A stretch of DNA of 64,000 nucleotides from Callorhinchus milii (lineage: Eukaryota), in contig NW_024704762.1 in assembly GCF_018977255.1 (NCBI RefSeq), positions 3,906,001-3,970,000 on the forward strand, read 5' to 3'. Positions within the stretch are counted from its first letter, which is position 1. Each line of letters begins with the position of its first letter. The position numbers and the translations under genes are program-made. This document shows positions 506 through 54,759 of this stretch, piece after piece. The notes beneath the pieces were generated by a model that had not been told where the DNA came from, made no database searches, and saw only the letters and a program-made list of their open reading frames with translations.

Positions 506-528
506 CTGGCCTAGTTACTTTAATGTAC

Positions 529-5922
<5,394 letters not shown>

Positions 5923-9953: not shown

Positions 9954-10345
9954 AAAAGGCAGGGAAAGGTGGACAGTTCTATTAAGGATCCGGAACATTC
10001 AGGATAAGAAAGTTGAGATATTTGGTGAACAAGTCTGACCATTTCTGTATTGGAGATAACTGACATTGACCGTCAGAACTTCCTTCTTCACTGACTTCAC
10101 TTTAATAATAATCCTTGTATTTGATATAACGGCTTATCATGTTGTTGAGACGTCTCAAAGTGCTTCACAGAATACACTCTAAAGTATTTTATGGACTCTG
10201 TATTTTGTGGATTGTATACTTTTAACGCCCTTACTTCCCAAGAACCTATCAATCTTCCTTTTGAACATCCCAATTGTTTCTGCATCTACAGCCTCTGGGG
10301 CAGGTTAAAATCAAACCAGGAGGTCAGGTCAGATTGCCGTCTCTC

Positions 10346-10351
10346 TTTATT
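10346..10351 (-). terminator. Poly(A) signal AATAAA of B1 (equivalents: B2 19110-19115, B3 28127-28132)
   Basis: AATAAA about 400 nt past the stop codon, conserved in all three copies. Confidence 0.6.
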
Positions 10352-10747
10352 ACACAGCTCTGTACTTCTGAGTCCATATATGAATGAGCAACAGAGACAC
10401 CAAAACAGAACGTTAATACTTTGACTTTTGCATAAAATGCAGAATACCAGAGTCACTTCAGTAGCACATGCATAAAGAAATATTTTTAAGCAACCGATTT
10501 TTAAGCGCTCCAAGATGCTGCCCCGGGTGAAGTTTGCTATATCAATGCACGTTGTTGTTGTTGATTTAGTCCGGGAAAAGCATTTAACGATTTCCGATAA
10601 TATGAAATTCTTTCTCAAAGGTTTGTTGGCGGAGCCTTCTTAAACGACACTGGGACATGGTGACTGAAGGCAGCTGAAGATGCCTACAATCTTAGAAGAG
10701 TTTGGATTTCTTAAAGTGGAGTCACTACAGTTCCAGTTGGTCCACAT

Positions 10748-13700
10748 TTACACCACAGGATAATGTGCGTAACTGGCAATGCCGCAGTTATTGCCCTTGT
10801 CCTTTGCCGTGTGGAAGTATCCACTGTTGCCCCATTTGACTCCCCAACTAAAGGAAGAAAGAGATAGAAATTACGGTTAACATCACTTAAGGTCATAAAG
10901 TCACACCAAAAAAGCTTGTGTGCTGCTCTGAGATTAAGAGGTGGACGAGAGCGGGGCAGGAGGGATTTAGGGAGAGGAGGAGGCCATTCAGTCCATCTGG
11001 CCTGTTTCACCATTTTATTGGATCATAGCAGATTTGGTAATCTCATCTCTCTGCTTTTCTCCACATGTGTTAACACTCCTACTTAGTTCCCAAGTATCTG
11101 TCGATCTTTTGACCAATGCATTCTGCATCTCTGACCTCCTGGGTTCCACAGTTTCACAAGCCTCCATGGGAAGAAATCTCTTCTGATCTCACTCCTAACC
11201 GGCTGAGCTCCAATTTTAAGACCATTACAATGCAGAGATAATGTGAAGCATATCCTCAGAGTGATAAGCACCGGCAGAAGTTACCCCTAGTGAAGGGCAC
11301 AATATAAATTCAAGTTGTTGTTGTCTCCATCTTTAGGCAAAACTGGAAAGAAATCAACACGTAATGTAAGTTCGCATGAGTTGGTTCAGAAAAAGAAAGT
11401 TCCTTTGGCCCATTCAATCTCACGCTCATCTAAACCAATTCCTGTCATTCATTTGAAAGACTGTCAAGCTTTCACATCACACATCAACAAAGCATGACCG
11501 CTGTATGCTCTTGGGTACCTTTGCAAGTGAGAGACCTGGGTTCGATTCCCAGCAGAGTGAAACCTTTCCTTACTCCACACGCCTGATAATAATCCCTCAA
11601 GAAAATAAAACAATTATAAATTGGTCACTTCAAACCATGACTGTTTGTGGGACGCTGCTGTGCGCAATTGGCTGCCGCATTTCGCCCACAAATATATAGT
11701 CAATTCACTTTAGTCTATTCTGTGAAGCGCTTTGAGACGTCTAGAAGACGTGAAAAGCGCTATATCAACGATTATTATTATTATTATTAAGTGGGTTAAG
11801 AGAGGAGCCCAGAGCTTAGAGGTCAAAGCACTGTATGTCACTGGTGCTAACCTTTTCTACGCTTTGCATTTGGTTAAAAGAAAATTGTGCATAATAGCTG
11901 AACTCTTACCAATATTTGGCGGTGTTGGGAAGCAAATAGGACTGTAGTTTAAAATGCCCTGGTTGCCTCATGGTGAAACACTACACTGCTTGAGAGGCGC
12001 TATATAAATGCAACTTGTTGTTGTTGTTGTGAGACGTACCTGTTTTTAACAATCCAATATGGTTCTCCTGCTTCAGTCCCATATCCAACACCAGTAACCC
12101 GTGGTCCATTACAGTCTTGCTACACGCCTCATCATAATAAATGCCTGTAAACAGCAGAAGTATTAAAGAATTGTAGAGCAGAAGGAGCCCATTCAGCCCT
12201 CTTATGACATTATTACAATTCGCGAGCTCTTTGTTCCACAATCTCTAAGGCGCATTTGAAGAATTTACATCAAATTTGTGATCTTAAGGTGTTCCTTAGG
12301 TGTAATTTGAGGTATTCTATGGTTCTTGGGGGAGATTTTGCAGGGAAACTTGATGTGTGTCTTCTGATGCTAAGAGACGCAGATAACAATAATAATCCTT
12401 ACTTTTGATATAATGTCTTATCACATCGTTGAGACAAGTTGAAGCACTTCACATAATATACTGTAAAGTGTATATTTTGTGGGCGAACATCATAGCCAAT
12501 TGCACACAGCAGTGTCCCACAAACAGCCGTGGATTCAGTAACAAAAATTTTTTTAAGGTATTGTTACTCCCCAGAAAGCGATCCACCAATCGACTAATAA
12601 ATGGGTTCCTATTTACTTCTAGATGAACAGAGACGTGCGGAGTGAGGAAACTTGGCCAAGGTTTCGCCCTGCTCAGGAATCGAACCGGGTTCTCCCGCTT
12701 GCAAGGCAAGTGCTCAATCCAATATGGATCCACTACCTTACAGGATCGAGGAAGGTATTTAGCTGATAAACGAGAGCACAAGGCTCTGCGTAACTCTGAC
12801 TTCTCACCTGATTTGTAGAACATGAATGACGCACGACCTGCGTCAAAGCCGACAGCTATTGGGCCGACAGTGGCCACCGCAGCGGCTAAGTCCCTCTCCG
12901 AGTTCTTCCTGATCATCTTCACCCCCTGACATGTGGCCACGCTCTCGTTCTCCTTACTGGTACAAACTCCGTTCTGCAACGTAAGTACAGCCCTTAGAGA
13001 CACCGAAGCCTCGAGTCACATGAAAAAAGTCCAATATCATTTTTTCACCCAGCGAGTTGTTGGGATCTGGAATGCATTGCCTGAACGGGCGGTGGAAGCC
13101 GATACGATAACAACTTTCAAGAGAGACGTAGATAGATATTTGGAGGACAAGTTTGCAGGGCTATGGGGAGAGAGCTGGGGAGTGGGATTAATTTGGAAGC
13201 TCTTTGAAAGATTTATACCTCATTGGAAAAGGTCTTGCGGCTGGGAGTGACATGGGCATATTTGTTTTCGTATATATCAATCGATCATGAGTAATTTTCA
13301 GTTTTGCATTTTCCGCTGCAGTTACACCTGGTGGCCGATGAGTCAAAGTGGTGCTGTGACATCTTGTGTCACAGAGTACGCACATAGCCAAGTGGCGGGA
13401 ACAAAATAAAGAACACAGACGACGTTAAGCCGAGGCAACAACAATCCAATTACATTTTTAAAGCGCCGAGTCCTCCCACTGAGTCCTCCCAAAAGGAGTC
13501 CTCCCACAGGAGTATAGATAAAGATGAAATGTCTGTCTGTGTGTCAATCTACATTCCGTATTGGATCCTTCGGTTCCAAAGAAAGCTGCAATGGGTATAG
13601 CTAGTATAATATAATATCATAATAATAATCCTTGCATTTAATACAGCGCCTTAACATCTCAACAGCACATCATTTTCAAGATGTCTCAGTGGCTGTGTAA

Positions 13701-16404
13701 ATGTGGGTGATATAGCAGCCAATTTATAGAATCATAGAATCTCAGAGCACCATCATGCCTGTGCCGGCTTCTGGAAAGAGTTATCCAAACAGTCCCACTC
13801 TTCCACTCTTTCCCCATAGCCCTGCAAATGTTACCTTTTCAAGTATATATCCAATTCCATTTTGAAAGTTATTATACAATGCGCTTCCACCATCCTGTCA
13901 GGCAATGCATTCCAGATCGTAACAACTCGCTAGATTTTAAATAAAATTTTAGATGCAACTTGCGCAGAGCGATGTCCCACAAACAGCCATGGAGCGAGTG
14001 ACTAATTTTATTCGAGCGATTATTGGCGAGGACACCAGGAGAGAAAGTCTCTTCTCTTTTCAAATAGTGTCACAGGTTGCTTAACGTCCACCTGGACAGG
14101 CAGATGGGACCTTGGTTTAACGTCTCACCTGAAGGACGGCATAGACATATAGGGTCTCCAAGTCCTGAGCTGGGGATTGAACCCACAACCTTCTGCCACA
14201 GAGACGAGAGCGCTACCAACTGAGCCACGCTGGCACTTTGAGGTCATTGCCCCAGTCATTGACAAAACAACAACAACAAAATTGCATTTATAGAGCGCTT
14301 TTCACTTTGGGAGGACATCCCAAGGCGTTGTACAGTTGCGTTGAGACCCAAGCAGGGGGGAAATGGTCAGGGTGAGGGGAGGGAAGGAAGGGAGCGAGGA
14401 GGGGGTAGAGAGTCGAGAGGGGAGGTGTAGGCACTTTTGAAGAGAAGAAAAGGAAGGTGTTTAAAGAGAGGGTAAGTTACCTTGGCAGTGTAGGGGTAGG
14501 ATTCCTCCGAGTTGATTCCTTTCTCTTTAATGAAGAGGAGGGAATGGATACTGGAGCCACCGTTACATCCGTGATTCCCGACACTCTGGCTGCAGTCCAT
14601 CAGGTACTGCTCGCTAAGCGAGATCAACTTCCCCGTTTTCTTAAACCACTGACCTTCCAGGACCCCGGTCGTACAGAATGCCCAACATGAGCCACAGGCT
14701 TTCTGGTGAATGAGGAGCAACAGCGAATTAATAACAATAACAATTCTTGCATTTGCTACAGCGCCTTATCACAGAATATCTTAACCATTCTTTTCCTTCC
14801 GCTCGGCCGGCACTGGCCTGCTCCATCTCCCCCACCCCCGCCAGCCCCACCATTGGTGGTCGAGCCTTCAGCTTTTCTGACCCCACCTTTTGGAACTCCA
14901 TCCCAGAACCCCTCCACCTCGTCCCCTCTCTTTCCTCCTTCAAGGCCCATCTCAAGACCTTCCTCTTGACCCCGCATTCAATAGTTTAGTAGGCGCTAAA
15001 AGTGATTCTCCTTCACCTGGTCCTTCACTCCGGTAACGTAGCCTTTAGGGCGCCAGTCAACACTCTGAGGGAGGTCAGTCTTATCATCAGCTGTAAATAT
15101 GTTGCATGTTTTGTTGTTATATTGCCTTGTGTTTCGCCTATTCAACAGGTTACTGAACTCCTCAACGGTCTGGAAAGGTAAGTGATGTTGAGATTTGTTA
15201 GTTACAATATCGCCACACGGTGGGTGTGAGGGAAGAGAACAGCATCAGGTCATGATATCTTTTGGGATAATATCCCATACACACAAACAGTTGTGGATCG
15301 AGTGACTAAATTGTGATTATTCTTTTTCAAGGAATTATTACCACCCAAAAGCGATCCACCAATCAAATAACAACTGGGTTCCTACTTACCGCGAGGTAAC
15401 CAGAAGTATGTGAAGTGAAGTAAGATCGCTTGCGAGGCGAGTGCTCTAACCACTACACGACAGGACTCCACAATCAATCTTCATCCCGATTCAATGGGAG
15501 TGTTTCAAAGATTCGCTGTTCACCTTTCACACTCTCACACTTCAGGTACCTACCATGTCTCCAAACTGATTCATCCCCACAGCAAACGTGTGTTTCCCCA
15601 TGAAGTAATCCGTGTTGTGCTTCTCAATATACTGCAGGTTCTGCTCCCACACATTTCTTCTAAACACAGCATCTTTCTGAAAAGTAGGATTTACACCCGT
15701 GTCAAACTCCAACTCCTTTTAGCATAGAAATCATCAATCGAGAGAAATATTTTCCACCTGGATAGCTTAGCATTTCGGATCATCTGACTAACCACATTCA
15801 CCAATCTCGTCCAAACGACTGCATTTCTGACAAAACAACACTCTTGTCAACATTGCACAGGAGCGTCAGCTTAGATTTTGAGTCTCAAACTTCTGATGTG
15901 GAGGCTTGAACCCACAACTTTCTGACCCAGAGGCAAGAGTGTTACCAAATGAGCCAGTCCGACAATTTGCATGGGAGAAGAGAGCAGAGAAGAGGAGAGA
16001 GGAGAGAAGGGGAAAAGAGGAGAATAGAGGAGAGGGAGGAGAGGAGAGAGTGGCTGAAAATAGACGAGCTTCTCAGGTTTGGGCTAAGCCTCGGTGTTAA
16101 GGCAGAGTTAGAGTCTCCCAAAGACGTGATAATATTTTGTTTTAAAATTTCATTTTCAGAAAGAGCACAAGGAAATAAGATGGATGAGTGTAAATAACTA
16201 TAACTGGAGTCTGGAAAAAAATGTGAAACATGAGACATTGCCCTAACCCTCTCTGGTGAAAAGCTTTGCTCTTACCTCCTGGTACAGCTTCTTGTGAAAA
16301 GATTTCCAGCTCAGCCACTCATTGTCCAATTCTGGATTGATCGAGACTGTTGAAGCTTTAACTAGAACGAACACCACAAAACAGCCCCTCAGCAGGAAGT
16401 TCAT
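10748..16404 (-). CDS. Cathepsin L/S-like protease, copy B1 (apparent 1-bp frameshift in exon 7: pseudogene or sequence error)
   Basis: Exons 16276-16404, 15554-15676, 15017-15169, 14481-14702, 12808-12973, 12040-12144 (105 bp vs 106 in B2/B3; a C is missing near 12089), 10748-10847. Motifs [26 protein letters not shown] (after frame correction), [12 protein letters not shown]. Confidence 0.88.
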
Positions 16405-16634
16405 GACGAGTTATCTGTCAGAACAAAACACGGGGATCAGACAGACAGTGAGCAAGTTACTCTGAGACAAGAGATTTTGTGCGGCAGTGGTCATCTCCCT
16501 GCTTTGATATAACGTCTTATCACTTCATTGAGACGTCTCAAAGCGCTTCACAGAATATACTGTGAAGTGGGTTGACTGAATTTTATGGGCAAAAGACACA
16601 TATGATAAAACAACATTTTTATCAATAGTCCTAC

Positions 16635-16690
16635 CTTCCAGCCGTCCTGCCCTCTGGCTAATGTGCGGAGCGCGCAGGTCAATATATACC
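16635..16690 (-). promoter_or_regulatory. B1 TATA box and short non-coding exon 1
   Basis: TATATA at 16683-16688 and donor AAG|GTAGG at 16634; conserved in all three B copies. Confidence 0.6.
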
Positions 16691-19511
16691 ATAGTTAACA
16701 GCAGCGTCCTGTCCACCCTCAAGATGCTGCTGTAACACAAATGATTGACAGGTCCGAGTGATCAAGTTGACAAATAATATCAGATATCTCGCGTCCTGTA
16801 AGGTGACCTGTTGCTCAGTAAGCAATTTATTTCCCCCTTCCGCACAGTAACGCTGATTGCTGAGTGTAACTCATTTGTTAGCTTTAAGATCAGAGCAGCT
16901 TTGGTGCAGAGTTTTTGTGTTAGAATCCAAAGCCAAATGAACGGCCTTTTGTCACCGAGGTCCCGCTGTGATGCCAGAATATTGTGTTTGAGCACACGGA
17001 GCTCAACAACGAGGTAACAGAAACCTCCACACTGCGACTGTTGACTCTGCTATCGGCCAATAATGATAATAATAATAATCATAATATTAATAATTCTTGC
17101 ATTTGATATAGCGCCTTATCATTCCGTTGAGACCACCTCGAAGTGCTTCAAAGAACAGACTGTCAAGCAGATTGACTACTTTGTGGGTGAAACCAGTAAA
17201 TGAATAAAATCTCTAAGATCCGAAGCAGAAAGAGCATTGTGGGAGGCAGCGAGTGATCTTAAATAGAGAGGGTGAAGGCGACCGATAACAAAAGCTCTTT
17301 TGAACTTAAGTAAGTATCACAATAATGTTAATCCTTCCGTTTGATGTTTCTCCTTTCACATTGGGAGGATATCTCTGGGACGCTGTATAAATTCAAGTTG
17401 TTGTTGTTATCTCAAAGCACTTCACAGGATTTATTGTAAAATGTAGGGCAGTGTTTTGAAGGCAAACTCAGCAGCCAATTTGTGCACAGCGACATCCCAC
17501 ACAAATAGCTATGACGATGACAACAACAACAACATGTACTTACATAGCGTGGAGTACGGAAACTTGCCGAAGGCTTTGCCCTGCCCTGGAATTGAATCCG
17601 GTTCCTGTCGCTTGCGAAGCGAGTGCTCTAACCACTACCCTACAGGCCTCCATAGCTCACAATTAAGTGGTTGAGATTTTTATACACCTCCGCCCCCGCC
17701 CCCACACCCAAGCAACACCTCCCTCCTGGCTCGGAGTCAGGCACCGCCAGTGTTAAGTGCTCTGAAACGCTGCACTGCGTGGAGGGCGATATATAAGCGC
17801 AAGTTGTTGTTACTAAAAGCTGAAAATGTATTTGAAAATGAACAGTAGGTGTTCCTTTAGAGATCCTCACCAGATCCACAGTGGATCTGAAAGGATGAGA
17901 TCAAAATGTCTCTCTTCATCCAAGCTGCCTATTCTACATCTTATGATGAAGTTAGAAGAAGGAAAGGGATTTGCCTGACTGCCCATCGACGGTGCTTGCG
18001 GTCACCCACTCCTTCCCCCCAATTCGGCGTCAGGCTCCCCAACTGTCAAGTGCCCCAAGATACTGCCCGTGTAAAGGGTGCAGTGTAAGTTAAGTTGTTG
18101 TTGTTGAGCACAGTTTCAGCCTTTGCATCAGTTCAATCTCGTGTCTCGGGCTAGTGCACACGTGTGGGTGTCAGGTGTCAGGTGTCAGGTGAGGGCAGGA
18201 TCGGGGCTTGGCTGTGAAGACTCATGGGTGCAAATAGGCACTTGGGCGAAGTCCTTGCTCTCAGGCTACGTGTGGACCTCATTAGATTTTACCGTCAGCA
18301 CTAATGCAGCCCATTTCCTTCTACAATTATTTTCTAAAGTCTTTGAACAGAGAGACAGAGGGAAAGTGTGAGGAGTGAACATGAAGAACATCAGACCAAT
18401 TGGAGTATCTGTGAAATGTAATAACCTTTATATTTGATATCGCACCTCATAATCATCCTTTAATACAACACCTTATCACATTGAGAGCCTGTCTCAAGCA
18501 CTTCACAGGATTTACCGTGAGCTGCGGTGACTGTGTATTTTGTAGGCAAACGCAGCAACCAATTTGCGCACAGCAATGTCCAACAAACAGCCATGATGTG
18601 AATGATCAATTTTATTTGGAATGACAGCTGGACTGCGAGTCCTGATGTGAGGCTTTCCAGTCCAATATGGATCTCAGAGTTTCTGTAGTATCCAAACCTT
18701 CGGATTGAAATTCCACCTGGATATTTACAGTGTCCTGGAATTGGTAAAGTCTTAAAAACCACAGAAAATTGGCTTCAAAGTGAAGATTCAACAGTTTGCC
18801 AAATGTTGAGACTCTAAAATACTACATAGAGTAAATCTAGACCCAAGTGGAATTTCTCCCCATTAGATCCTTTTAGACGGTTTGATTTGGTTTCCTGGGA
18901 AAGTGGGGAGAGGGAGGGAACGAGGTCGAGGAGCTCAAAAGGCAGTGAAAGGTGGACAGTTTAATTAAGGAGCCAGAACATTCAGGATAAGAAAGTTGAG
19001 ATATTTGGTGAACAAGTCTGACCATTTCTGCATTGGAGATACCTGACATTGACCGTCAGAACTTCCTTCTTCACTGACTTCAGGAGGTCAGGTCAGATTG
19101 CCGTCTCTCTTTATTACACAGCTCTGTACTTCTGAGTCCATATATGAATGAGCAACAGGGACACCAAAACAGAATGTTAATACTTTGACTTTTGCATAAA
19201 ATGCAGAATACCAGAGTCACCTCAGTAGCACATGCATAAAGAAATATTTTTAAGCAACCGATTTTTAAGCGCTCCAAGATGCTGCCCCGGGTGAATTTTG
19301 CTATATCAATGCACGTTGTTGTTGTTGATTTAGTCCGGGAAAAACATTTAACGATTTCCGATAATATGAAATTCTTTCTCAAAGGTTTGTTGGCGGAGCC
19401 TTCTTAAACAACACTGGGACATGGTGACTGAAGGCAGCTGATGATGCCTACAATCTTAGAAGAGTTTGGATTTCTTAAGGTGGAGTCACTACAGTTCCAG
19501 TTCATCCAAGT

Positions 19512-22500
19512 TTACACCACAGGATAGAGTGCGGAACTGGCAATGCCGCAGTTATTGCCCTTGTCCTTTGCCGTGTGGAAGTATCCTTTGTTGCCCCATT
19601 TGACTCCCCAACTAAAGGAAGAAAGAGATAGAAATTACGGTTAACATCACTTAAACTCATGAAGTCACACAAAATAAAATTTAACGCTCGTTTCCGCTCT
19701 GAGATTAAGAGGTGGACGAGAGCGGGGGAGGAGGGATTTAAGGAGAGGAGGAGGAGGCCATTCAGTCCCTCTGTGCTGTTCCACTGTTATATTGGATTAA
19801 AACAGATTTGTTAGTCTCATCTCTCTGCCTTTTCTCCACGTGTTAACACTCCTACTTAGTTCCCAAGTAATCTGTCGATCTTTTGACCAATGCATTCTGC
19901 ATCTCTGACCTTCTGGGTTCCACAGTTTCACAAGCCTCCATGGGAAGAAACCTTTTCTGATCTCATTCCTAACCGGCTAAGCTCCAATTTTAAGACCATT
20001 GCAATGCAGAGATAATGTAAAGCATATCCTCAGAGTGATAAGCACCAGCAGAAGCTACCACTAGTGAAGGGCACAATATAAATTCAAATTGTTGTCGTTG
20101 TTGTTGATGTTGTCTCCATCTTTAGGCAAAACTGGAAAGAAATCAACACGTAATGTACGGTCAAAGGAGTTAGTTCGGAAAAAGAAAGTCCCTTTGGCCC
20201 ACTCAATCTCACCAGTCACAGGGTCAAGTGGGTCAAGAGTAGAGCCCAGAGCTTAGAGATCAAAGTGCACTCACTGTACGTCGCTGGTGCTAACCTCTGC
20301 TACGCTTTGCATTTAGTTAAAAGAAAATTGGGCATAATAGCTGAACTCTTACCAATACTTGGCAGTGTTGGGAAGCAAATAGGACTGTAGTTTAAAATGC
20401 CCTGGTTGCCTCATGGTGAAACACTACACTGCTTGAGGGGCGCTGTACAAATGCAACTGGTGCTAACCTCTAAGATGCTTTGCATTTGGTTAAAAGAAAA
20501 TTGGCGCTGTTGGGAAGCAAATAGGACTGTAGTTTGCAATGCCGTGGTTTTCTCATACTGAAAGTGCTCTGGGACACTATACTGCTTGAGGGGCGCTATA
20601 TAAATGCAACTTGTTGTTGTTATGAGACGTACCTGTTTTTAACAATCCAATATGGTTCTCCTGCTTCAGTCCCATATCCAACCACCAGTAACTCGTGGTC
20701 CAGTACAGTCTTGCTACACGCCTCATCATAATAAATGCCTGTAAACAGCAGAAGTATTAAAGAATTGCAGAGCAGAAGGAGCCCATTCAGCCCTCTTATG
20801 ACATTATTACAATTCGCGAGCTCTTTGTTCCACAATTCCACGGTTCTTTGGGGAGGGTTGGAGGAGATTTTTCAGGGAAACTTGATGTGAGTCTTCTGAT
20901 GCTAAGAGACGCAGATAACAATAATATTAATAATAATCCTTACTTTTGATATAACGTCTTATCACATCGTTGAGACATGTTGAAGCACTTCACATAATAT
21001 ACTGTAAAGTGTATATTTTGTGGGCGAACATCATAGCCAATTGCACACAAACAGCCGTGGATTGAGTAACCAAATTTTTTCTTAAGGTATTCTTACCCCC
21101 CAGAAAGCGATCCACCTATCGACTAATAAATGGGTTCCTATTTACTTCTAGATAAACAGAGATGTGCGGAGTGAAGAAACATGGCCAAGGTTTCGCCCTT
21201 CTCGGGAATCGAACCGGGTTCTCCCGTTTGCAAGGCAAGTGCTCAATCCAATATGGATCCACTACATTACAGGATCGAGAAAGGTATTTAGCTGATAAAC
21301 GAGAGCACAAGGCTCTGCGTAACTCTGACTTCTCACCTGATTTGTAGAACATGAATGACGCACGACCTGCGTCAAAGCCGACAGCTATTGGGCCGACAGT
21401 GGCCACCGCAGCGGCTAAGTCCCTCTCCGAGTTCTTCCTGATCATCTTCACCCCCTGACATGTGGCCACGCTCTCGTTCTCCTTACTGGTACAAACTCCG
21501 TTCTGCAACATAAGTACAGCCCTTAGAGACACCGAAGCCTCGAGTCACATGAAAAAAGTCCAATATAATTTTTTCACCAGCGAGTTGTTGGGATCTGGAA
21601 TGCATTGCCTGAACGGGCGGTGGAAGCCGATACGATAACAACTTTCAAGAGAGTCGTAGATAGATATTTGGAGGACAAGTTTGCAGGGCTATGGGGAGAG
21701 AGCTGGGGAGTGGGATTAATTTGGAAGCTCTTTGAAAGATTTATACCTCATTGGAAAAGGTCTTGTGGCTGGGAGTGACATGGGCATATTTGTTTTCGTA
21801 TATCCCTATCGTTCATGAGTTATTTTCAGTTTTGCATTTTCTGCTGCAGTTACACCCGGTGGTCGCTATGTCAAGGTGGTGCTGTGGCATCGTGCGTCAC
21901 AGAGCACCTACATATGTACGCAAGCACTGCAGTCACACCTGGTGGCCGGACCGGCTTACTGTGGCATCTTGCGTCACAGAGTACGCACGTAGCAAAGTGG
22001 CGGGAACAAAATAAAGAACACAGACGAAGTTAAGCCGCGGCAACAACAATCAAGTTACATTTTTAAAGCCCCGAGTCCTCCCACTGAGTCCTCCCAAAAG
22101 GAGTCCTCCCACAGGAGTATAGATAAAGATGAAATGTCTGTCTGTGTGTCAATCTACCTTCCATATTGGATCCTTTGGTTGCAAGGGAAGCNNNNNNNNN
22201 NNNNNNNNNNNNNNNNNNNNNNNNNNNNNNNNNNNNNNNNNNNNNNNNNNNNNNNNNNNNNNNNNNNNNNNNNNNNNNNNNNNNNNNNNNNNNNNNNNNN
22301 NNNNNNNNNNNNNNNNNNNNNNNNNNNNNNNNCGCCTTAACATCGCAACAGCACATCATTTTCAAGATGTCTCAATGTACAGTGGCTGTGTAAATGTGGG
22401 TGATATGGCAGCCAATTTATAGAATCATAGAATCTCAGAGCACCATCATGCCTGTGCCGGCTTCTGGAAAGAGTTATCCAACTAGTCCCACTCTTCCGCT

Positions 22501-25500
22501 CTTTCCCCATAGCCCTGCAAATGTTACCTTTTCAAGTATATATCCAATTCCATTTTGAAAGTTATTATACAATGCGCTTCCACCATCCTGTCAGGCAATG
22601 CATTCCAGATCGTAACAACTCGCTAGATTTTAAATAAAATTTTAAATGCAATTTGCGCAGAGCGATGTCCCACAAACAGCCATGGAGCGAGTAACTAATT
22701 TTATTTGAGCAATTATTGGCGAGGACACCAGGAGAGAAAGTCTCTTCTCTTTTCAAATAGTGTCACAGGTTGCTGAACGTCTACCTGGACAGGCAGATGG
22801 GACCTTGGTTTAACGTCTCACCTGTAGGACGGCATAGACTTATAGGGGCTGCAAATCCTGAGCTGGACCCATAACCTTCTGCCACAGAGGCGAGAGCGCT
22901 ACCAACTGAGCCACGCTGGCACTTTGAGGTCATTGCCCCAGTCATTGACAAAAGGAAGGTGTTTAAAGGGAGGGTAAGTTACCTTGGCAGTGTAGGGGTA
23001 GGATTCCTCCGAGTTGATTCCTTTCTCTTTAATGAAGAGGAGGGAAAGGCTGTTGTAGCCACCGTTACATCCGTGATTCCCGACACTCTGGCTGCAGTCC
23101 ATCAGGTACTGCTCACTAAGCGAGATCAACTTCCCCGTTTTCTTAAACCACTGACCTTCCAGGACCCCGGTCGTACTGAACGCCCAGCACGAGCCACAGG
23201 CTTTCTGGTGAATGAGGAGCGACAGCGAATTAACAATAATAATCCTTGTATTTGCTACAGCGCCTTATACCGTCTTCAGGACGTCTCAAAGCGCTTCACA
23301 GAATATCTTAACCATTCTTTTCCCTCTGCTCGGCCGGCACTGGCCTGCTCTATCTCCCCCACCCCCGACCATTGGTGGTCGAGCCTTCAGCTTTTCTGCA
23401 CCCACTTTCGGGAACTCCATCCCGGAACCCCTCCACCTCGTCCCCTCCCTTTCCTTCTTCAAGGCCCATCTCAAGACCTTCCTCTTGACCCCGCAATCAA
23501 TAGTTTAGTAGGCGCTAAAAGTGATTCTCCTTCACCTGGTCCTTCACTCCGGTAACGTAGCCTTTAGGGCGCCAGTCAACACTCTGAGGGAGGTCAGTCT
23601 TATCATCAGCTGTAAATAGGTTATATGTTTTGTTGTTATATTGCCTTGTGTTTCGCCTATTCAACAGGTTACTGAACTCCTCAACGGTCTGGAAAGGTAA
23701 GTGATGTTGAGATTTGTTAGTTACAATATCGCCACAGGGTGGGTGGGAGGGAAGAGAACAGCATCAGGTCATGATATCTTTTGGGATAATATCCCATGTG
23801 CACAAACCGTTATGGATTGAGTAATAATATAATAATAATAATCCTTGCATTTGATATAGCGCTTTTCACGTCGGGAGGACGTCCCAAAGCGCTTCACAGA
23901 ACACACTGTAAAGTGAATTGACTGTATATTTGTGGGCGAACGCGGCAGCCAATTGCGCACAGCAATGTCCTACAAACAGTCGTAGATTGAAAATGACCAA
24001 TTTATTATTGTTTTTGGTTTTGGAGGGATTATTATTAGGCTCTGTGTGGAGTAAGGAAACTTGCCCAAGGTTTCGCTCTGCCTGGAATTGAACTCAGGTC
24101 TCTCACTTGCAAAGCGAGTGCTCTAACCACTGAGCTACAGGACTCCACAAGTGACTAAATTGTGATTATTCTTTTTCAAGGAATTATTACAACCGAAAAA
24201 ATGATCCGCCAATTAAATAACAACCGGGTTCCTACTTACCGCGAGGTAACCAGAAGTATGTGAAGTGAAGTAAGAAAACTTGCCTTACATTTCGCCCTGG
24301 CTGGGAATCAAACCCAGTCCTCTCGCTTGCGAGGCGAGTGCTCTAACCACTACACTACAGGACTCCACAATCAATCTTCATCCCGATTCAATGGGAGTGT
24401 TTCAAAGATTCGCTGTTCACCTTTCACACTCTCACACTTCAGGTACCTACCATGTCTCCAAACTGATTCATCCCCACAGCAAACGTGTGTTTCCCCATGA
24501 AGTAATCCGTGTTGTGCTTCTCAATATACTGCAGGTTCTGCTCCCACACATTTCTTCTAAACGCAGCATCTTTCTGAAAAGTAGGATTTACACCCGTGTC
24601 AAACTCCAACTCCTTTTAGCATAGAAATCATCAATCGAGAGAAGTATTTTTCCTCTAGAGCTTAGCATTTCGGATCATCTCACAAACCACATTCACCAAG
24701 AAATGTGCCTTATCACCATAATCGCAGGCCCACAATAATATTCAAACAGTATCAGTAATCCGTGCATAATCCTTCCTTTATCATTGTGTTGATAAGCTGA
24801 TAAACATCTTTGCAGATTTTGCTGTGGAGAAATCACTGTGTATTTTGGAGTCAAACACAGCAGCGAGTTTGCACACAGCAGCGTCCCACAAACAGCCATG
24901 AAGTAGATGATTTTGCTTTGGTTTTATCTGGAGGATTGTTGGCCAGGACACCAGGTGAAACTCCCTTCTCTTTACAAATAGAGCCACGGGATCCTTAACA
25001 TCCATCTGACCTCAGTTTAACATCTCATCCAAGCGACAGCATTTCTGACAGAACAACACTCTTGTCAACATTGCACAGGAGCGTCAGCTTAGATTTTGAG
25101 TCTCAAACTTCTGATGTGGAGGCTTGAACCCACAACTTTCTGACCCAGAGGCAAGAGTGTTACCAAATGAGCCAGTCCGACAATTTGCATGGGAGAAGAG
25201 AGCAGAGAAGAGGAGAGAGGAGAGAAGGGGAAAAGAGGAGAATAGAGGAGAGGGAGGAGAGGAGAGAGTGGCTGAAAATAGACGAGCTTCTCAGGTTTGG
25301 GCTAAGCCTCGGTGTTAAGGCAGAGTTAGGGTCTCCCAAAGAAATTATATTGTTTTTTTAAAAAATTAGATTTTTAGAAAGAGCACAAGGAAATAAGATG
25401 GATGAGTGTAAATAACTATAACTGGAGTCTGGAAACAATGTGAAACATGAGACATTGCCCTAACCCTCTCTGGTGAAAAGCTTTGCTCTAACTTTTTGAC

Positions 25501-25675
25501 CCAGAGGCAAGAGTGTTACCAAATGAGCCAGTCTGACAACTCTTACCTCCTGGTACAGCTTCTTGTGAAAGGTTTTCCAGCTCAGCCACTCATTGTCCAA
25601 TTCTGGATTGATCGAGTCTGTTGAAGCTTTAACTAGAACGCACACCACAAAACAGCCCCTCAGCAGGAAGTTCAT
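19512..25675 (-). CDS. Cathepsin L/S-like protease, copy B2 (intact, 332 aa)
   Basis: Exons 25547-25675, 24451-24573, 23536-23688, 22983-23204, 21337-21502, 20633-20738, 19512-19611 sum to 999 nt, open, GT-AG. Gln19/Cys25/His159/Asn175 present. Confidence 0.95.
22192..22332. other. Assembly gap (others 31051-31178, 46345-46481)
   Basis: N runs. Confidence 1.
23822..24148 (-). mobile_element. Young SINE (short subfamily), B2 intron-3 specific
   Basis: Nearly identical to the 7414 and 9633 copies; empty sites at ~15302 and ~32642. Confidence 0.85.
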
Positions 25676-25933
25676 GACGAGTTATCTGTCAGAACAAAAC
25701 ACAGGGATCAAACAGACAGTGAGCAAGTTACTCTGAGACAAGAGATTTTGTGCGGCCAAAAGGTCTATCTCGTAGACCACGTCGGTGGTCATCTCCCTGC
25801 TTTGATATAACGTCTTATCGCTTCATTGAGACATCTCAAAGCGCTTCACAAATATACTGTAAAGTGGGCTGACTGTGTATTTTATGGATGAAAGACACAT
25901 ATAGTAAAACAAAATCTTTATCAATAGTCCTAC

Positions 25934-25990
25934 CTTCCAGCCGTCCTGCCCTCTGGCTAATGTGGGGAGCGCACTGATCAATATATACCA
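25934..25990 (-). promoter_or_regulatory. B2 TATA box and short non-coding exon 1
   Basis: TATATA at 25982-25987; donor at 25933. Confidence 0.6.
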
Positions 25991-28528
25991 TAGTCAACAG
26001 CAGCGTCCTGTCCACCCTCAAGATGCTGCTGTAACACAAATGATTGGCAGGTCCGAGTGATCAAGTTGACAAATAATATCAGATATCTCGCGTCCTGTAA
26101 GGTGACCTGTTGCTCAGTAAGCAATTTATTTCCCCCTTCCGCACAGTAACGCTGATTGCTGAGTGTAACTCATTTGTTAGCTTTAAGATCAGAGCAGCTT
26201 TGGTGCAGAGTTTTTGTGTCAGAATCCAAAGCCAAATGAACGGCCTTTTGTCACGGAGGTCCCGCTGTGATGCCAGAATATTGTGTTTGAGCACACGGAG
26301 CTCAACAACGAGGTAACAGAAACCTCCACGCCGCGACTGCATTGTGGGAGGTAGTGAGTGATCTAAAATAGAGAGGGTGAAGGCGATCGATAACAAAAGC
26401 TCTTTCGAGCTGACATAAATATCACAATAATGTTAATCCTTGCATTTGATGTTTCTCCTTTCACGTTGGAAGGACATTACCACTACCCTCCAGGACTCCA
26501 TAGCTTACATTTAAGTGGCTGAGATTTTTGTACACCTTCCTCTCTTCTTTGCACACCCTTTCAGCCACTACGCCCCGAAACTCTGGGACACGCTCCCTCA
26601 ATCCGTCCCCAGCCCCTCTTAGACTGAGCTTACAGCCACCTCCACCCCCGCACCCCACCCCCCACCCCCCAGCACCTCCCCCCTGGCTTGCAGTCAGGCT
26701 CCGCCACTGTTAAGCGCTCTGAGATGCTGCCCTGCGTGGAGGGCGTTATAAAAGTGCAAGTTGTTGTTGTTAAAATCTGAAAGTGTATTGTAACTGTGTT
26801 ACCAGTGGCGCCATCTTGTGGCGGATATTGGTACAGCAGTTGTTCCTTTGGAGATCATCACCAGATCCACAGTGGGTCTGAAAGGATGAGATCAAAATGT
26901 CTTTCTTCATCCAAGCTGCCTATTCTACATCTTATGATGAAGTTAGAAGAAGGAGAGGGATTTGCCTGACTGCCCATCGACGGTGCTTGCGGTCACCCAC
27001 TCCCTCCCCCCAGTTCAGCGTCAGGCTCCCCAACTGTTAAGTGCCCCAAGATGCTGCCCGTGTAAAGGGTGCAGTGTAAGTGTAAGTTATTGTTGTTGAG
27101 CACAGTTTCAGCCTTTGCATCAGCTCAATCTCGTGTCTCGGGCTAGTGCACACGTGTAGGTGTCAGGTGTCAGGTGAGGGCAGGATCGGGGCTTGGCTGT
27201 GAAGACTCATGTGTGCCAATAGGCATTTGGGCGAAGTCCTTGCTCTCAGACTAAGTGTGGACCTCATTACACTTTACCGTCCAGCACTAATGCAGCCCAT
27301 TTCCTTCTACAATTATTTTCTAAAGTCTTTGAACAGAGAGACAGAGGGAGAGTGTGAGGAGTGAACAGGAAGAACATCAGACCAATTGGAGTATCTGTGA
27401 AATGTAATAACCTTTATATTTGATATCGCACCTCATAATCATCCTTTAATACAGCACCTTATCACATTGAGAGCCTGTCTCAAGCACTTCACAGGATTTA
27501 CTGCGGTGACTGTGTATTTTGTAGACAAATGCAGCAACCAATTTGCGCACAGCAATGTCCAACAAACAGCCATGATGTGAATGATCAATTTTATTTGGAG
27601 TGACAGCTGGACTGTGAGTCCTGATGTGAGGCTTTCCAGTCCAATATGGATCTCTGAGTTCCTGTAGTATCCAAACCTTCGGATTGAAATTCCACCTGGA
27701 TATTTACAGTGTCCTGGAATTGGTAAAGTCTTTAAAACTGCATGGATTTTCAAGTTCTTTTTGTGGAAGTATATTCTGAAAACCACAGAAAACTGGCTTC
27801 AAAGTGAAGATTCAATTCAACAGTTTGCCAAATGTTGAGACTCTAAAATACTACATAGAGTAAATCTAGACCCAAGTGGAATTTCTCCCCATTAGATCCT
27901 TTTGGACGGTTTGATTTGGTTTCCTGGAGGGAGGGAACGAGGTCGAGGAGCTCAAAAGGCAGGGAAAGGTGGACAGTTCTATGAAGGAGCCAGAACATTC
28001 AGGATAAGAAAGTTGAGATATTTGGTGAACAAGTCTGACCATTTCTACTTTGGAGATACCTGACATTGACCGTCAGAACTTCCTTCTTCACTGACTTCAG
28101 GAGGTCAGGTCAGATTGCCGTCTCTCTTTATTACACAGCTCTGTACTTCTGAGTCCATATATGAATGAGCAACAGGGACACCAAAACAGAACGTAAATAA
28201 TTTGCTTTTTGCATAAAATGCTGAATACCAGAGTCACCTCAGTAGCACATGCATAAAGAAATATTTTTAAGCAACCGATTTTTAAGCGCTCCAAGATGCT
28301 GCCCCGGGCGAAGTTTGCTATATCAATGCACGTTGTTGTTGTTGATTTAGTCCGGGAAAAGCATTTAACGATTTCCGATAATATGAAATTCTTTCTCAAA
28401 GGTTTGTTGGCGGAGCCTTCTTAAACAACACTGGGACATGGTGACTGAAGGCAGCTGAAGATGCCTACAATCTTAGAAGAGTTTGGATTTCTTAAGGTGG
28501 AGTCGCTACAGTTCCAGTTCATCCAAGT

Positions 28529-31500
28529 TTACACCACAGGATAGAGTGCGGAACTGGCAATGCCGCAGTTATTGCCCTTGTCCTTTGCCGTGTGGAAGTA
28601 TCCATTGTTGCCCCATTTGACTCCCCAACTGAAGGAAGAAAGAGATAGAAATTACGGTTAACATCACTTAAAGTCATGAAGTCATACAAAAAAGTAATTT
28701 AAAGCTCGTCGCTGCTCTGAGATTAAGAGGTGGACGAGAGCGGGGGAGGAGGGATTTAGGGAGAGGAGGAGGCCATTCAGTCCATCTGGGCTGTTTCACC
28801 ATTTTATTAGATCATAGCAGATTTGTTAATCTCATCTCTCTGCCTTTTCTCCACGTGTGTTAACACCCTTACTTAGTACCCAAGTATAAATGCAAGTTGT
28901 TGTTGTCGTCTCAATTTTTAGGCAAAACTGGAAAGAAATCAACACGTAATGTATGGTCACAGGAGTTAGTTCAAAAAAAGAAAGTCCCTTTGGCCCATTC
29001 AATCTCAACCTCATCTAAACCAATTCCTGTCATTCATTTGAAAGACTGTCAAGCTTTCACATCACACGTCTGCAAAACATGACCGTTGTAGGCTCTTGGG
29101 TACCAGCTCAAGTCTTCACCCACCTGAGTTCCTGCCAGTCACAGGGTCAAGTGGGTCAAGAGTAGAGCCCAGAGCTTAGAGATCAAAGTACACACACTGT
29201 ACGTCCCTGGTGCTAACCTCTGCTACGCTTTGCATTTGGTTAAAAGAAAATTGGCGCTGTTGGGAAGCAAATAGGACTGTAGTTTGAAATGCCCTGGTTG
29301 CCTCCTGGTGAAAGTGCTCTGGGACACTACACTGCTTGAGGGGCGCTATATAAATGCAACTTGTTGTTGTTGTTGTTGTTGTTGTTGTGAGACGTACCTG
29401 TTTTTAACAATCCAATATGGTTCTCCTGCTTCAGTTCCATATCCAACCACCAGTAACTCGTGGTCCGTTACAGTCTTGCTACACGCCTCATCATAATAAA
29501 TGCCTGTAAATAGCAGAAGTATTAAAGATATGCAGAGCAGAAGGAGCCCATTCAGCCCTCTTATGACATTATTACAATTCGCGAGCTCTTTGTTCCACAA
29601 TCTCTAAGACCCAATTGAAGAATTTCCATCAAATTTATGATCTTAAGGTGTTCCTGAGGTGTAGTTTGGGGTATTCTACGGTTCTTGGGGGCGGGGGGGA
29701 GATTTTGTTGGGAAACATGATGTGAGTCTTCTGATGCTAAGAGGCGCAGATAATAATAATAATAATCCTTACTTTTGATTTGACATTTTATCACATCGTT
29801 GAGACACGTCGAAGCACTTCACATAATAAATCACGTAAAGTGTACATTTTTGGGCGAATGTGACAGACAGCCAATTGCACACAGCAGTGTCCCACAAACA
29901 GCGGTGGATTGAGTAACCAAATTGTTTTTAAGGTATAGTTACCCCCAGAAAGTGATCCGTCAATCAACTAGAACTTACTTCTAGGTAAACAGAGGCTTCT
30001 GTGTGGAATTAGGAGACTTGCCGAAGGTTTCTCCCTGCCCGGGAATCGAAATCCACTATCTTACAGGATCGAGGAAGGTATTTAGCTGATAAACGAGAGC
30101 ACAAGGCTCTGCGTAACTCTGGCTTCTCACCTGATTTGTAGAACATGAATGACGCACGACCTGCGTCAAAGACGACGGCTATTGGGCCGACAGTGGCCAC
30201 CGCAGCGGCTAAGTCCTTCTCTGAGTTCTTCCTGATCATCTTCACCCCCTGACATGTGGCCACGCTCTCGTTCTCCTTACTGGTACAAACTCGTTCTGCA
30301 ACGTAAGTACAGCCCTTAGAGACGCCGAAGCCTCGAATCACATGAAAAAAGTCCAATATAATTTTTTCACCCAGCGAGTTATTTGAGGAGGACAAGTTTG
30401 CAGGGCTATGGGGAGAGAGCTGGGGAGTGGGATTAATTTGGACAGCTCTTTCAAAGACCTGGCACGGACATGATGAGCTGAATGGCCTCTTCTGTGCTGT
30501 ATAATTCCATAATAATATTCTATCTTCTTCTTTACATGTACTAATAAAATGACAATGTCTTTCTGCGCTTCCAGAAGGATCTCAATAACCGATTGACGTA
30601 GAGACATGATTTATATCTCATCGGAAATAGTCTTGCAACTGGGAGTGACATGGGCATATTTGTTTTTGTATATATCCTATCGTTCATGAGTTATTTTCAG
30701 TTTTGTAGTTACACCTGGTGGCCGCTGAGTCAAAGTGGTACTGTGACATCGTGCGTCACAGAGTACCTACAAATGTATGCACGCACTGCAGTCACATCTG
30801 GTGGCCGGCCCGGCTGACTGTTGTGCTGTGGCATCCTGCATCACAGAGTACGCACGTAGTCAAGCGGCGGGAACAAAATAAAGAACACAGTCGAAGCTAA
30901 GCCGCGGCAGCAACAGTAAAATTATATTTTTAAAGGGCCAAAAGGAGTCCTCCCACAGGAGTCCTCCCAGAGGAGTATAGATAAAGATGAAATGTCTGTC
31001 TGTGTGTCAATTTACATTCCATGTTGAATCCTTTGGTCGCAAAAGAAGCTNNNNNNNNNNNNNNNNNNNNNNNNNNNNNNNNNNNNNNNNNNNNNNNNNN
31101 NNNNNNNNNNNNNNNNNNNNNNNNNNNNNNNNNNNNNNNNNNNNNNNNNNNNNNNNNNNNNNNNNNNNNNNNNNNNNNATTTGATACAGCGCCTTAACAT
31201 CTTGACAACACGTCATTGCCAAGCAATCTCAATGTACAGTGGCTGTGTAAATGTGGGTGATATAGCAGCCAATTTATAGAATCATAGAATCTCAGAGCAC
31301 CATCATGCCTGTGCCGGCTTCTGGAAAGAGTTATCCAACTAGTCCCACTCATCCGCTCTTTCCCCATAGCCCTGCAAATGTTACCTTTTCAAGTATATAT
31401 ACAATTTGAAAGTTATTATACAATGCGCTTCCACCATCCTGTCAGGCAATGCATTCCAGATCGCACAGCAATGTCCCACAAACAGCCATGGAGCGAGTAA

Positions 31501-33469
31501 CTAATTTTATTTGAGCAATTATTGGTGAGGACACCAGGAGAGAAAGTCTCTTCTCTTTTCAAATAGTGTCACAGGTTGCTTAATGTCCACCTGGACAGGC
31601 AGACGGGACCTTGGTTTAACGTCTCACCTGAAGGACGGCATAGACTTATAGGGGCTCCAAATCCTGAGCTGGACCCATAACCCTCTGCCACAGAGGCGAG
31701 TGCACTACCAACTGAGCCACGCTGGCACTTTGAGGTCATTGCCCCAGTCATTGATAAAAGGAAGGTGTTTAAAGGGAGGGTAAGTTACCTTGGCAGTGTA
31801 GGGGTAGGATTCCTCCGAGTTGATTCCTTTCTCTTTAATGAAGAGGAGGGAACGGTAGTTGGAACCACCGTTACATCCGTGATTCCCGACACTCTGGCTG
31901 CAGTCCATCAGGTACTGCTCACTAAGCGAGATCAACTTCCCCGTTTTCTTAAACCACTGACCTTCCAGGACCCCGGTCGTACTGAACGCCCAGCACGAGC
32001 CACAGGCTTTCTGGTGAATGAGGAGCAATACTGAATTAATAATAATAATAATAATAATCCTTGTATTTGCTACAGCGCCTTATAACGTCTTCCAGACGTC
32101 TCAAAGTGCTTCACAGAATATCTTAACCATTCTTTTCCTTCCGCTCGGCCGGCACTGGCCTGCTCCATCTCCCCCACCCCGCCAGCCCCACCATTGGTGG
32201 TCGAGCCTTCAGCTTTTCTGACCCCACCTTCTGGAACTCCATCCCAGAACCCCTCCACCTCGTCCCCTCTCTTTCCTCCTTCAAGGCCCATCTCAAGACC
32301 TTCCTCTTGACCCCGCATTCAATAGTTTAGTAGGCGCTAAAAGTGATTCTCCTTCACCTGGTCCTTCACTCCGGTAACGTAGCCTTTAGGGCGCCAGTCA
32401 ACACTCTGAGGGAGGTCAGTCTTATCATCAGCTGTAAATATGTTGCATGTTTTGTTGTTATATTGCCTTGTGTTTCGCCTATTCAACAGGTTACTGAACT
32501 CCTCAACGGTCTGGAAAGGTAAGTGATTTGAGATTTGTTAGTTACAATATCGCTACAGGGTGGGTGGGAGGGAAGAGAACAGCATCAGATCATGATATCT
32601 TTTGGGATAATATCCCATACACACAAACAGTCATGGATTGAGTGACTAAATTGAGATTATTGTTTTTAAAGGGATTATTAACCCCCAAAAAGTGATCTGC
32701 CAATCGATTAAAAACTGTAAACAGAGGCACATAAAGTGAAGTAAGAAAACTTGCCTTACATTTTGCCCTGGCTGGGAATCAAACCCAGTCCTCTCGCTTG
32801 CGAGGCGAGTGCTCTAACCATTTCACTACAGGACTCCACAATCAATCTTCATCCCGATTCAATGGGAGTGTTTCAAAGATTCGCTGTTCACCTTTCACAC
32901 TCTCACACTTCAGGTACCTACCATGTCTCCAAACTGATTCATCCCCACAGCAAACGTGTGTTTCCCCATGAAGTAATCCGTGTTGTGCTTCTCAATATAC
33001 TGCAGGTTCTGCTCCCACACATTTCTTTTAAACGCAGCATCTTTCTGAAAAGTAGGATTTACACCCGTGTCAAACTCCAACTCCTTTTAGCATAGAAATC
33101 ATCAATCGAGAGAAATATTTTCCACCTGGATAGCTTAGCATTTCGGATCATCTGACTAACCACATTCACCAATCTCGTCCAAACGACTGCATTTCTGACA
33201 AAACAACACTCTTGCCAACATTGCACAGGAGTGTCAGCTTAGATTTTGAGTCTCAAACTTCTGATGTGAAGGCTTGAACCCACAACTTTTTGACCCAGAG
33301 GCAAGAGTGTTACCAAATGAGCCAGTCTGACAACTCTTACCTCCTGGTACACCTTCTTGTGAAAGGTTTTCCAGCTCAGCCACTCATTGTCCAAAGCTGG
33401 ATTGATCGAGACTGTTGAAGCTTTAACTAGAACGCACACCACAAAACAGCCCCTCAGCAGGTAGTTCAT
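28529..33469 (-). CDS. Cathepsin L/S-like protease, copy B3 (apparent 1-bp frameshift at start of exon 6: pseudogene or sequence error)
   Basis: Exons 33341-33469, 32922-33044, 32358-32510, 31789-32010, 30131-30295 (165 bp vs 166 in B1/B2; ctcg vs ctccg near 30292), 29398-29503, 28529-28628. Confidence 0.88.
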
Positions 33470-33713
33470 GACGAGTTATCTGTCAGAACAAAACACAGGG
33501 ATCAGACAGACAGTGAGCAAGTTACTCTGAGTTGAGAGATTTTGTGCAGCCAAAAGGTCTATCTTTTAGACCACACCAGTGGTCATCTCCCTGCTTTGAT
33601 ATAACGTCTTATCACGTCATTGAGACGTTTCAAAGCGCTTCACAGAATATACTGTAAAGTGGGTTGACTGTGTATTTTATGGGCAAAAGACACATTTTTA
33701 TCAATAGTCCTAC

Positions 33714-33770
33714 CTTCCAGCCGTCCTGCCCTCTGGCTAATATGGGGAGCGCACAGGTCAATATATACCA
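33714..33770 (-). promoter_or_regulatory. B3 TATA box and short non-coding exon 1
   Basis: TATATA at 33762-33767; donor at 33713. Confidence 0.6.
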
Positions 33771-34302
33771 TAGTTAACAGCAGCGTCCTGTCCACCCTCA
33801 AGACGCTGCTAAAACGCAAATGGTTGACAGGTCCGAGTGATCAAGTTGACAAATAATATCAGATATCTTGCGTCCTGTAAGGTGACCTGTTGCTCAGTAA
33901 GCAATTTATTTCCCCCTTCCGCACAGTAACGCTGGTTGCTGAGTGTGACCCATTTGTTAGCTTTGAGATCATAGCAGCTTTAGTTTTTTGTCAGAATCCA
34001 AAGCCAAATGAATGGCCTTTTGTCACGGAGGTCCCGCTGTGATGCCAGAATATTGTGTTTGAGCACACGGAGCTCAACAACAAGGTAACAGAAACCTCCA
34101 CGCCGCGACTGCTGTCTCTGCTATCGGCCAATAACGATCATAATAATAATAATAATCCTTGCATTTGATAGTCTCATCACCTCATAATAATAAATAATAA
34201 TCCTTGCATTTGATATAGCGCTTTCCACGTCTTCTAGACGTCTCAATGCGCCTCACAAAATATACTGTAACGTAAATTGATTGTGTATTTGTGGGCGAAA
34301 CG

Positions 34303-39307: not shown

Positions 39308-44809
<5,502 letters not shown>

Positions 44810-48953: not shown

Positions 48954-54759
<5,806 letters not shown>

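Follow-up and report, generated by a model that had tools for sequence, protein, structure and literature searches.

Diversification of the S2 subsite after gene duplication is already known from Fasciola (PMC5917446), where the Fasciola hepatica proteases FhCL1, 2, 3, and 5 are duplicates with positively selected cleft residues and differing P2 preferences (PMC5917446, PMC3708847). Swapping residues 67 and 205 switches the preferences of cathepsins K and L (PMC5917446), in FheCL3 the combination of His61 with an aromatic residue 67 goes along with acceptance of Pro at P2 and with the cutting of collagen (PMC3708847), and an acidic pocket residue permits basic P2 residues in cathepsin B (PMC9712828). 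Here, we examine a comparable case in the chimaera Callorhinchus milii, in a 64,000-nt window (contig NW_024704762.1, positions 3,906,001 to 3,970,000) that contains six cathepsin L-like genes, namely A, B1, B2, B3, C, and D, all on the minus strand. We put at about 70% the probability that B1, B2, and B3 are real tandem cathepsin L-like copies in which selection likely favours distinct cutting preferences while gene conversion likely homogenises the rest.

Residue differences among the B1, B2, and B3 pockets

Each of the three B genes was modelled with seven exons bounded by AG/GT splice sites, and the B3 start, at 33469, proved to lie beyond the interval 10748..32010 given in a preliminary description of this DNA. 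The features on which the comparison depends are as follows, in window positions and papain residue numbers; types a and b are the shark and ray paralogs considered below.

10748..16404, minus strand: B1, cathepsin L-like gene, seven-exon model
16276-16404, 15554-15676, 15017-15169, 14481-14702, 12808-12973, 12040-12144, 10748-10847, minus strand: B1 coding exons
14544..14555, minus strand: B1 codons 67-70 (Ser Ser Ile His)
12098..12109, minus strand: B1 codons 157-160, including catalytic His159 (12101-12103)
B1 pocket: Ser67 Ser68 Gly133 Met157 Gly160 Tyr205, type-b-like at 67, 133, and 160
19512..25675, minus strand: B2, open 332-codon frame, seven-exon model
25547-25675, 24451-24573, 23536-23688, 22983-23204, 21337-21502, 20633-20738, 19512-19611, minus strand: B2 coding exons
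23046..23057, minus strand: B2 codons 67-70 (Tyr Asn Ser Leu)
20692-20703, minus strand: B2 codons 157-160
B2 pocket: Tyr67 Asn68 Gly133 Leu157 Glu160 Ser205, type-a-like at 67 and 160
28529..33469, minus strand: B3, seven-exon model
33341-33469, 32922-33044, 32358-32510, 31789-32010, 30131-30295, 29398-29503, 28529-28628, minus strand: B3 coding exons
31852..31863, minus strand: B3 codons 67-70 (Ser Asn Tyr Arg)
29457-29468, minus strand: B3 codons 157-160
B3 pocket: Ser67 Asn68 Val133 Thr157 Glu160 Ser205 (Tyr205 in record P0139)

The B proteins belong to papain family C1A and have the papain fold. Each comprises 332 residues, of which 116 form the prepro region and 216 the mature domain, and all three B records match PF00112 (Peptidase_C1; E about 1e-77 to 1e-79), with PF08246 (I29 propeptide) also matched at E about 1e-14. 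ERFNIN- and GNFD-type propeptide motifs mark the cathepsin L-like subgroup, and the B translation carries D-R-W-N-I-N and G-N-F-D. Gln19, Cys25, His159, and Asn175 are present in all three records; the B proteins also have conserved cysteines forming three disulfide pairs and two N-glycosylation sequons, and a predicted model of B2 (predicted local distance difference test score, 90.4) resembles procathepsin L with Foldseek template-modelling scores of 0.88-0.90. Judging by sequence, however, the S2 pocket would not be the hydrophobic one of cathepsin L, as polar or charged residues occupy positions 67, 68, 157, 160, and 205.

The mature scaffolds of B1-B3 are ∼95% identical, and a codon comparison of the mature domains returned 12 differences in 216 positions, exactly the positions and residues that the preliminary description had listed; the three 12-mers that it had quoted for codons 67-70 were likewise found at 14544, 23046, and 31852. 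Numbering by alignment to human procathepsin L and cathepsin V bore out its further claim that papain positions 67, 68, 133, 157, 160, and 205 belong to S2 and that all six vary: mature residues 69, 70, 135, 161, 164, and 210 align to Leu69, Met70, Ala135, Met161, Gly164, and Ala214 of cathepsin L, which are named as its S2 residues (PMC9712828). That 6 of 6 S2 sites should fall among 12 variable sites has a hypergeometric P of 7e-9, and random draws weighted by site variability in 89 other cathepsin L-like proteins never reproduced it (0/400,000 under each of three weightings). When papain 158, also counted as S2 (PMC5917446, PMC3708847), and a residue near 86 are included, both of which are invariant, 6 of 8 S2 sites vary (P = 2e-7). 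The statement that the copies differ almost only in S2 applies to the mature domain and not to the whole protein, because 10 of the 116 prepro residues also differ.

Selection on the pocket codons and the state of the copies

Our own codon models (not codeml) were fitted to B1, B2, and B3 as they stand in the window, broken codons entering as missing data. In a fixed-sites model, the ratio of nonsynonymous to synonymous rates (omega) reached 12.9 at the six S2 codons chosen a priori (likelihood-ratio test against omega = 1, P = 3e-5) and 19.8 across the cleft; the prepro region had an omega of 0.77, and the part of the mature domain outside the cleft one of 0.17. Site models gave P = 0.006 for M1a/M2a, P = 7e-4 for M8a/M8, and P = 0.005 for M7/M8, a comparison that the preliminary description had proposed. 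Relative to expectations from non-coding divergence, 7 amino-acid changes fall at the six S2 codons against 0.95 expected (P = 6e-5), whereas the mature domain outside the cleft carries 4 against 34 expected; with the 67-70 block removed, S2 still shows 5 changes against 0.62 (P = 5e-4), each of a single base and together spread over three exons. Purifying selection thus acts on the mature scaffold, with its omega of about 0.17, and selection for difference at the six S2 codons is supported.

In this assembly, only B2 has an open frame. The catalytic codons are present in all three window copies, but in B1 and B3 those past the following breaks are out of frame:

12089..12089, minus strand: one-base deletion in B1 (C against CC in B2); the frame shifts after His159 and before Asn175
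30292..30292, minus strand: one-base deletion in B3 where exon 5 begins (C against CC in B2)

B1 exon 6 of 7 (105 nt) and B3 exon 5 of 7 (165 nt) are each one base short. Records P0137, P0134, and P0139, however, are intact 332-residue proteins with the same three pockets, except for Tyr205 in B3; P0137, the B1 record, differs from the window at one residue, and B2 is identical to P0133. The frame is kept at the B1 break in P0137 and P0015, and at the B3 break in P0139 and P0013. Because intact records exist, the two deletions are probably assembly errors, and we would expect this to hold in three cases of four or slightly more. It is very unlikely, in our judgment, that B1 and B3, as pseudogenes or redundant copies, owe their differences to drift under relaxed constraint. 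Such decay could account for the deletions, for the weakly constrained prepro region (omega 0.77), and for Cys29 of B1, which sits at a nearly invariant site (entropy 0.09), but drift would not have singled out the S2 sites (0/400,000 weighted draws) or spared the rest of the mature domain (4 changes against 34), and both copies have intact records. Each deletion, moreover, shortens a two-base run, which is a typical long-read error.

A second possibility, that haplotypes or mis-polished reads created the three copies, is already largely refuted, and we regard it as highly improbable. The B genes form a tandem trio of head-to-tail units with unit-specific insertions:

8351..34156, strand not applicable: three ∼9-kb units including intergenic DNA, in blocks 88-98% alike, with unit-specific repeat insertions

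Non-coding p-distances among the units are 0.041-0.050 (4,111 filtered columns), the same three pocket types recur as intact records in a second annotation set, and exon depth is roughly threefold in two other samples, with exon contigs at depths of 17-26 in X1, where a B1-specific intron piece has a depth of 7. In addition, His207 and Leu207 both occur in X1 and in X3. What an artefact would explain is that the B3 records differ at residues 3, 49, and 326, and that residue 3 is swapped between the B2 and B3 records, possibly through cross-copy polishing.

Two local discrepancies were also observed. Residue 205 of B3 (28550-28552) is Ser in the window and Tyr in P0139, where residues 3 and 49 also differ; this could be allelic variation, conversion from B2, or cross-copy polishing. 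A contig of X3 at 14448-14718 has B1 letters at codons 67-70 and B2/B3 letters near Cys25-Ser29, and is either a collapsed contig or a recombinant allele.

The preliminary description had attributed the pocket differences to diversifying selection, yielding either a panel of P2 preferences or escape from an inhibitor. The selection on S2 codons is supported (omega 12.9), whereas a simply recent, lineage-specific origin does not. Escape, in which the cleft changes are driven not by substrate choice but by inhibitors of parasite or prey origin, such as cystatins, seems unlikely, although less so than decay. Parasite-secreted cathepsin L inhibitors reportedly exist (PMC7692546), the changes cover the entire non-prime cleft (67-70, 205, and 207), and position 205 differs between two B3 records. 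However, no site varies among B1-B3 on the prime side around Trp177 and the catalytic His, which protein inhibitors contact as well, and escape predicts continual turnover, yet the shark and ray orthologs keep their sites fixed.

Each B copy is predicted to be synthesised as a zymogen bearing a signal peptide, to be routed to the lysosome or secreted, and to cut with its own P2 preference. B2 (His61, Tyr67, Leu157, and Glu160) is predicted to have a narrow, acidic-floored pocket that, by analogy, might accept Pro or small residues at P2, as do cathepsin K and Fasciola CL2/CL3, or Arg/Lys through Glu160, which might mimic the acidic pocket residue of cathepsin B from another position. In B1 (Ser67, Gly133, Gly160, and Tyr205) the pocket would be deep and open, suited to bulky hydrophobic residues at P2, and in B3 (Ser67, Val133, Thr157, and Glu160) it would be shallow and polar. 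As to use, our leading guess, although one we would not bet on at even odds, is complementary bulk protein breakdown in the gut or lysosome; immune processing is a weaker guess, and an egg or reproductive role a slightly weaker one still. The 24 sequencing runs listed as carrying the sequence included no RNA run, which speaks neither for nor against expression.

Several observations weigh against the reading that we prefer. With respect to the copies, two of the three are frameshifted in this assembly, and contigs of two other samples over the B1 break have the extra base but also B2/B3 letters; because these letters indicate collapse, the contigs, which were compared at the B1 break, do not prove B1 intact. 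With respect to selection, the codon models rest on three sequences, whole-gene pN/pS (the ratio of nonsynonymous to synonymous differences per site) is below 1, constraint on the prepro region is weak (omega 0.77), and site posteriors flag all 22 variable codons with no ranking, so that the cleft is not set apart from the prepro region. Furthermore, 4 of the 22 codons that change amino acid show synonymous differences as well, which has P = 0.003 when the coding background is the reference and 0.07 when the intron rate is; 6 of 8 synonymous changes lie within five codons of a variable codon (P = 0.026). Because synonymous changes cluster in this way, older tracts or mutations of several bases at once may have inflated omega. 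With respect to the pocket, its positions were assigned by alignment rather than by measurement on model coordinates, papain 158, an S2 position, is unchanged among B1-B3, and Glu160, which has no characterised precedent in the excerpts of the literature available, could reduce activity.

Shark and ray paralogs and the origin of the pocket variants

Among the proteins compared, the B subfamily was found only in cartilaginous fishes; no proteins of other chimaeras were present among 14 short hits or among the 120 hits listed. In a 76-protein tree, B groups with shark and ray types a and b (0.81), with the best tree placing B outside a+b, and a separate clade (0.96) holds shark ctsla together with Xenopus, ostrich, and human CTSV proteins; B is not an ortholog of vertebrate CTSL/ctsla. 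Sorting by eye, with extra isoforms and fused models excluded, gave 20 type a and 17 type b proteins from 21 species, 16 of which have both. Type a carries Tyr67 in 16/20 (Phe in 3), Lys68 and Ser133 in 20/20 each, and Glu160 in 19/19, whereas type b carries Ser67, Val68, Gly133, and Gly160, each in 17/17. Four of the six S2 sites (67, 68, 133, and 160) thus differ between the paralogs, while five of six are fixed or nearly so within each, and this near-fixation points to long-term constraint on the pockets. Lys68 and Glu160, both invariant in type a proteins (e.g., P0019 and P0020), lie at the S2 floor, where a putative salt bridge between them may close the pocket. A neighbouring paralog (the P0193 cluster, 12 members) has recently expanded in the epaulette and bamboo sharks Hemiscyllium and Chiloscyllium.

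The chimaera pockets recall this split. B2 shares Tyr67/Glu160 with type a, B1 shares Ser67/Gly133/Gly160 with type b, and B3, with Ser67/Glu160, is mixed; propeptide residue 106 follows the same phase, B2 going with a and B1 with b. Such states are rare elsewhere, as Ser67 occurs in 0 and Glu160 in 1 of the 89 other cathepsin L-like proteins. The non-coding DNA of the units, in turn, shows clustered odd-one-out patterns, with 130 adjacent repeats where 97.8 would be expected (P = 1e-4), and the B copies look like mosaics from gene conversion or unequal crossing-over. Two claims of the preliminary description must be narrowed accordingly. As the copies look like conversion mosaics, the term recent triplicate dates their homogenisation, which is recent, and not necessarily the pocket variants. 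Nor is the system plainly lineage-specific, since the Tyr/Ser67 and Glu/Gly160 states are those of two paralogs that sharks and rays have conserved, and the variants may for that reason be old.

This leads to an alternative that redates our reading and that we consider a serious contender at somewhat under even odds. Genes with Tyr67/Glu160 and Ser67/Gly160 would predate the split between chimaeras and sharks and rays, and in the chimaera conversion and unequal crossing-over would have homogenised the pair while selection held the pocket codons apart, so that the high omega would reflect retention and not fast new change. The phased match at 67, 160, and 106, the presence in the chimaera of both otherwise rare states, the mosaic in non-coding DNA, and the clustering of synonymous changes at variable codons all favour it. 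The codon-67 exon, moreover, has 2 variants in X7 and at least 3 in X8 among the matches listed, with and without the Tyr base (one variant has it). X7 and X8 are likely other chimaera species, and X7 exon-4 pieces differ from B1 at 21/178 and 15/165 letters. An approximately unbiased (AU) test also leaves the a/b duplication and the chimaera split unordered, and so gives no ground for making the duplication the later event (p-AU 0.61, 0.46, and 0.37).

On the other hand, Tyr/Ser67 and Glu/Gly160 are single-base changes that can recur, Tyr and Cys at 106 occur in outgroup paralogs as well, B falls outside a+b in the best tree, and the X7/X8 codons are known only from the matches listed. Gene order taken from accession numbers is inconsistent, with Pristis and Hypanus disagreeing. 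Residues 68, 69, Val133, 157, and 207 match neither type, so that new change also occurred; Asn/Ser68, Val133, Met/Thr157, and His207 are new in the chimaera under either origin.

Two other histories were tried and rejected. Whole-gene orthology of B1 with type b and of B2/B3 with type a had a p-AU of 9e-59 (24 of the 76 tree proteins used), and genes A, C, and D are excluded as conversion donors of codons 67-70, as their translations differ at all these sites. The pocket split was either inherited and shielded from conversion, to which we give somewhat less than an even chance, or re-evolved in parallel, and both courses need selection. A fuller version is a little more tentative: cartilaginous fishes would have an undescribed two-pocket cathepsin system older than the chimaera-shark split, and in chimaeras conversion would have wiped out nearly all other differences between the copies, while exon-scale recombination shuffled the surviving pocket codons into a vertebrate protease panel with a new Glu160 specificity.

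Neighbouring genes and comparison with known systems

The remaining genes of the window are older cathepsin L-like paralogs:

525..5922, minus strand: gene A, with its final exon just before the window
39311..44797, minus strand: gene C
48957..54759, minus strand: gene D (record P0203)

A DNA search of the chimaera genome with one B exon gave seven matches, three at 95-100% and four at 73-78%. Upstream of the window (G000:C21:3876001-3906000), at least three further cathepsin L-like genes lie on the plus strand (L001-L003); for some of them the tblastn output lacks exons, and one has Tyr-Pro at 67-68 and Cys133. Two more cathepsin L-like exons occur on the same contig outside the cluster (G000:C21:4263555 and C21:2842489). 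Records P0239 and P0300 join gene D exons 1-3 (52921-54759) to gene C exons 4-7 (39311-42095) and match the window exactly except at exon edges, representing either an annotation chimera or read-through splicing that places the D propeptide on the C mature domain.

Our literature searches returned nothing on the B genes, on Glu160, or on the a/b split, although earlier work on the history of vertebrate cathepsins or on catshark tissue expression may cover the subfamily or its expression. The main text of the whale shark genome paper contains 0 mentions of cathepsin, and the available part of a shark skin paper reports one cathepsin L fragment of uncertain clade. B1-B3 constitute a natural mutagenesis series, with 95% identical scaffolds and nearly every S2 residue different, and therefore make the P2 roles of 67, 68, 133, 157, 160, and 205 directly testable. 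An acidic residue at 160 is almost confined to this subfamily among the sequences compared, and the match to conserved shark and ray paralogs points to an unstudied shark-wide proteolytic function. The trio also offers a clean case of parallel evolution versus selection resisting gene conversion, and a caution, in that two probable one-base assembly errors would make B1 and B3 look dead.

Tandem expansion of cathepsin L-like genes in a vertebrate has a precedent in the rodent placental cluster, which resembles the B cluster in this respect but arose in an independent lineage. PMC13664112 mentions a group of ctsl copies specific to rodents, and notable cts12 expansions in chondrichthyans are described in PMC13095802, whose available passages on cts12 contain nothing on pockets or the B genes; the B cluster is a likely candidate for this expansion. 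Human cathepsins L and V share with the B proteins their fold, catalytic residues, I29 propeptide, and ∼50% identity, whereas the cathepsin L pocket is lined by Leu, Met, Ala, and Gly where B has Ser/Tyr67, Ser/Asn68, Gly/Val133, and Glu160. Gly133, Gly160, and the aromatic residue 205 of B1 resemble the deep pocket of cathepsin S (PMC9712828), and B2, with His61 and an aromatic 67, resembles FheCL3 (PMC3708847).

Like the Fasciola duplicates, B1-B3 have omega above 1 at their cleft codons. Unlike them, they are vertebrate host genes, 95% identical, with a conversion-like mosaic, and none of the Fasciola and human sequences tabulated in the available part of PMC5917446 has Glu160. Closest of all are shark and ray types a and b, a tandem pair annotated as procathepsin L-like/cathepsin L2-like, which belong to the same subfamily (68-74% mature identity to B) and show the same split of Tyr67/Glu160 versus Ser67/Gly160. 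Types a and b, however, are ∼78-86% identical to each other and stable in 16 species, whereas the chimaera copies are ∼95% identical and shuffled.

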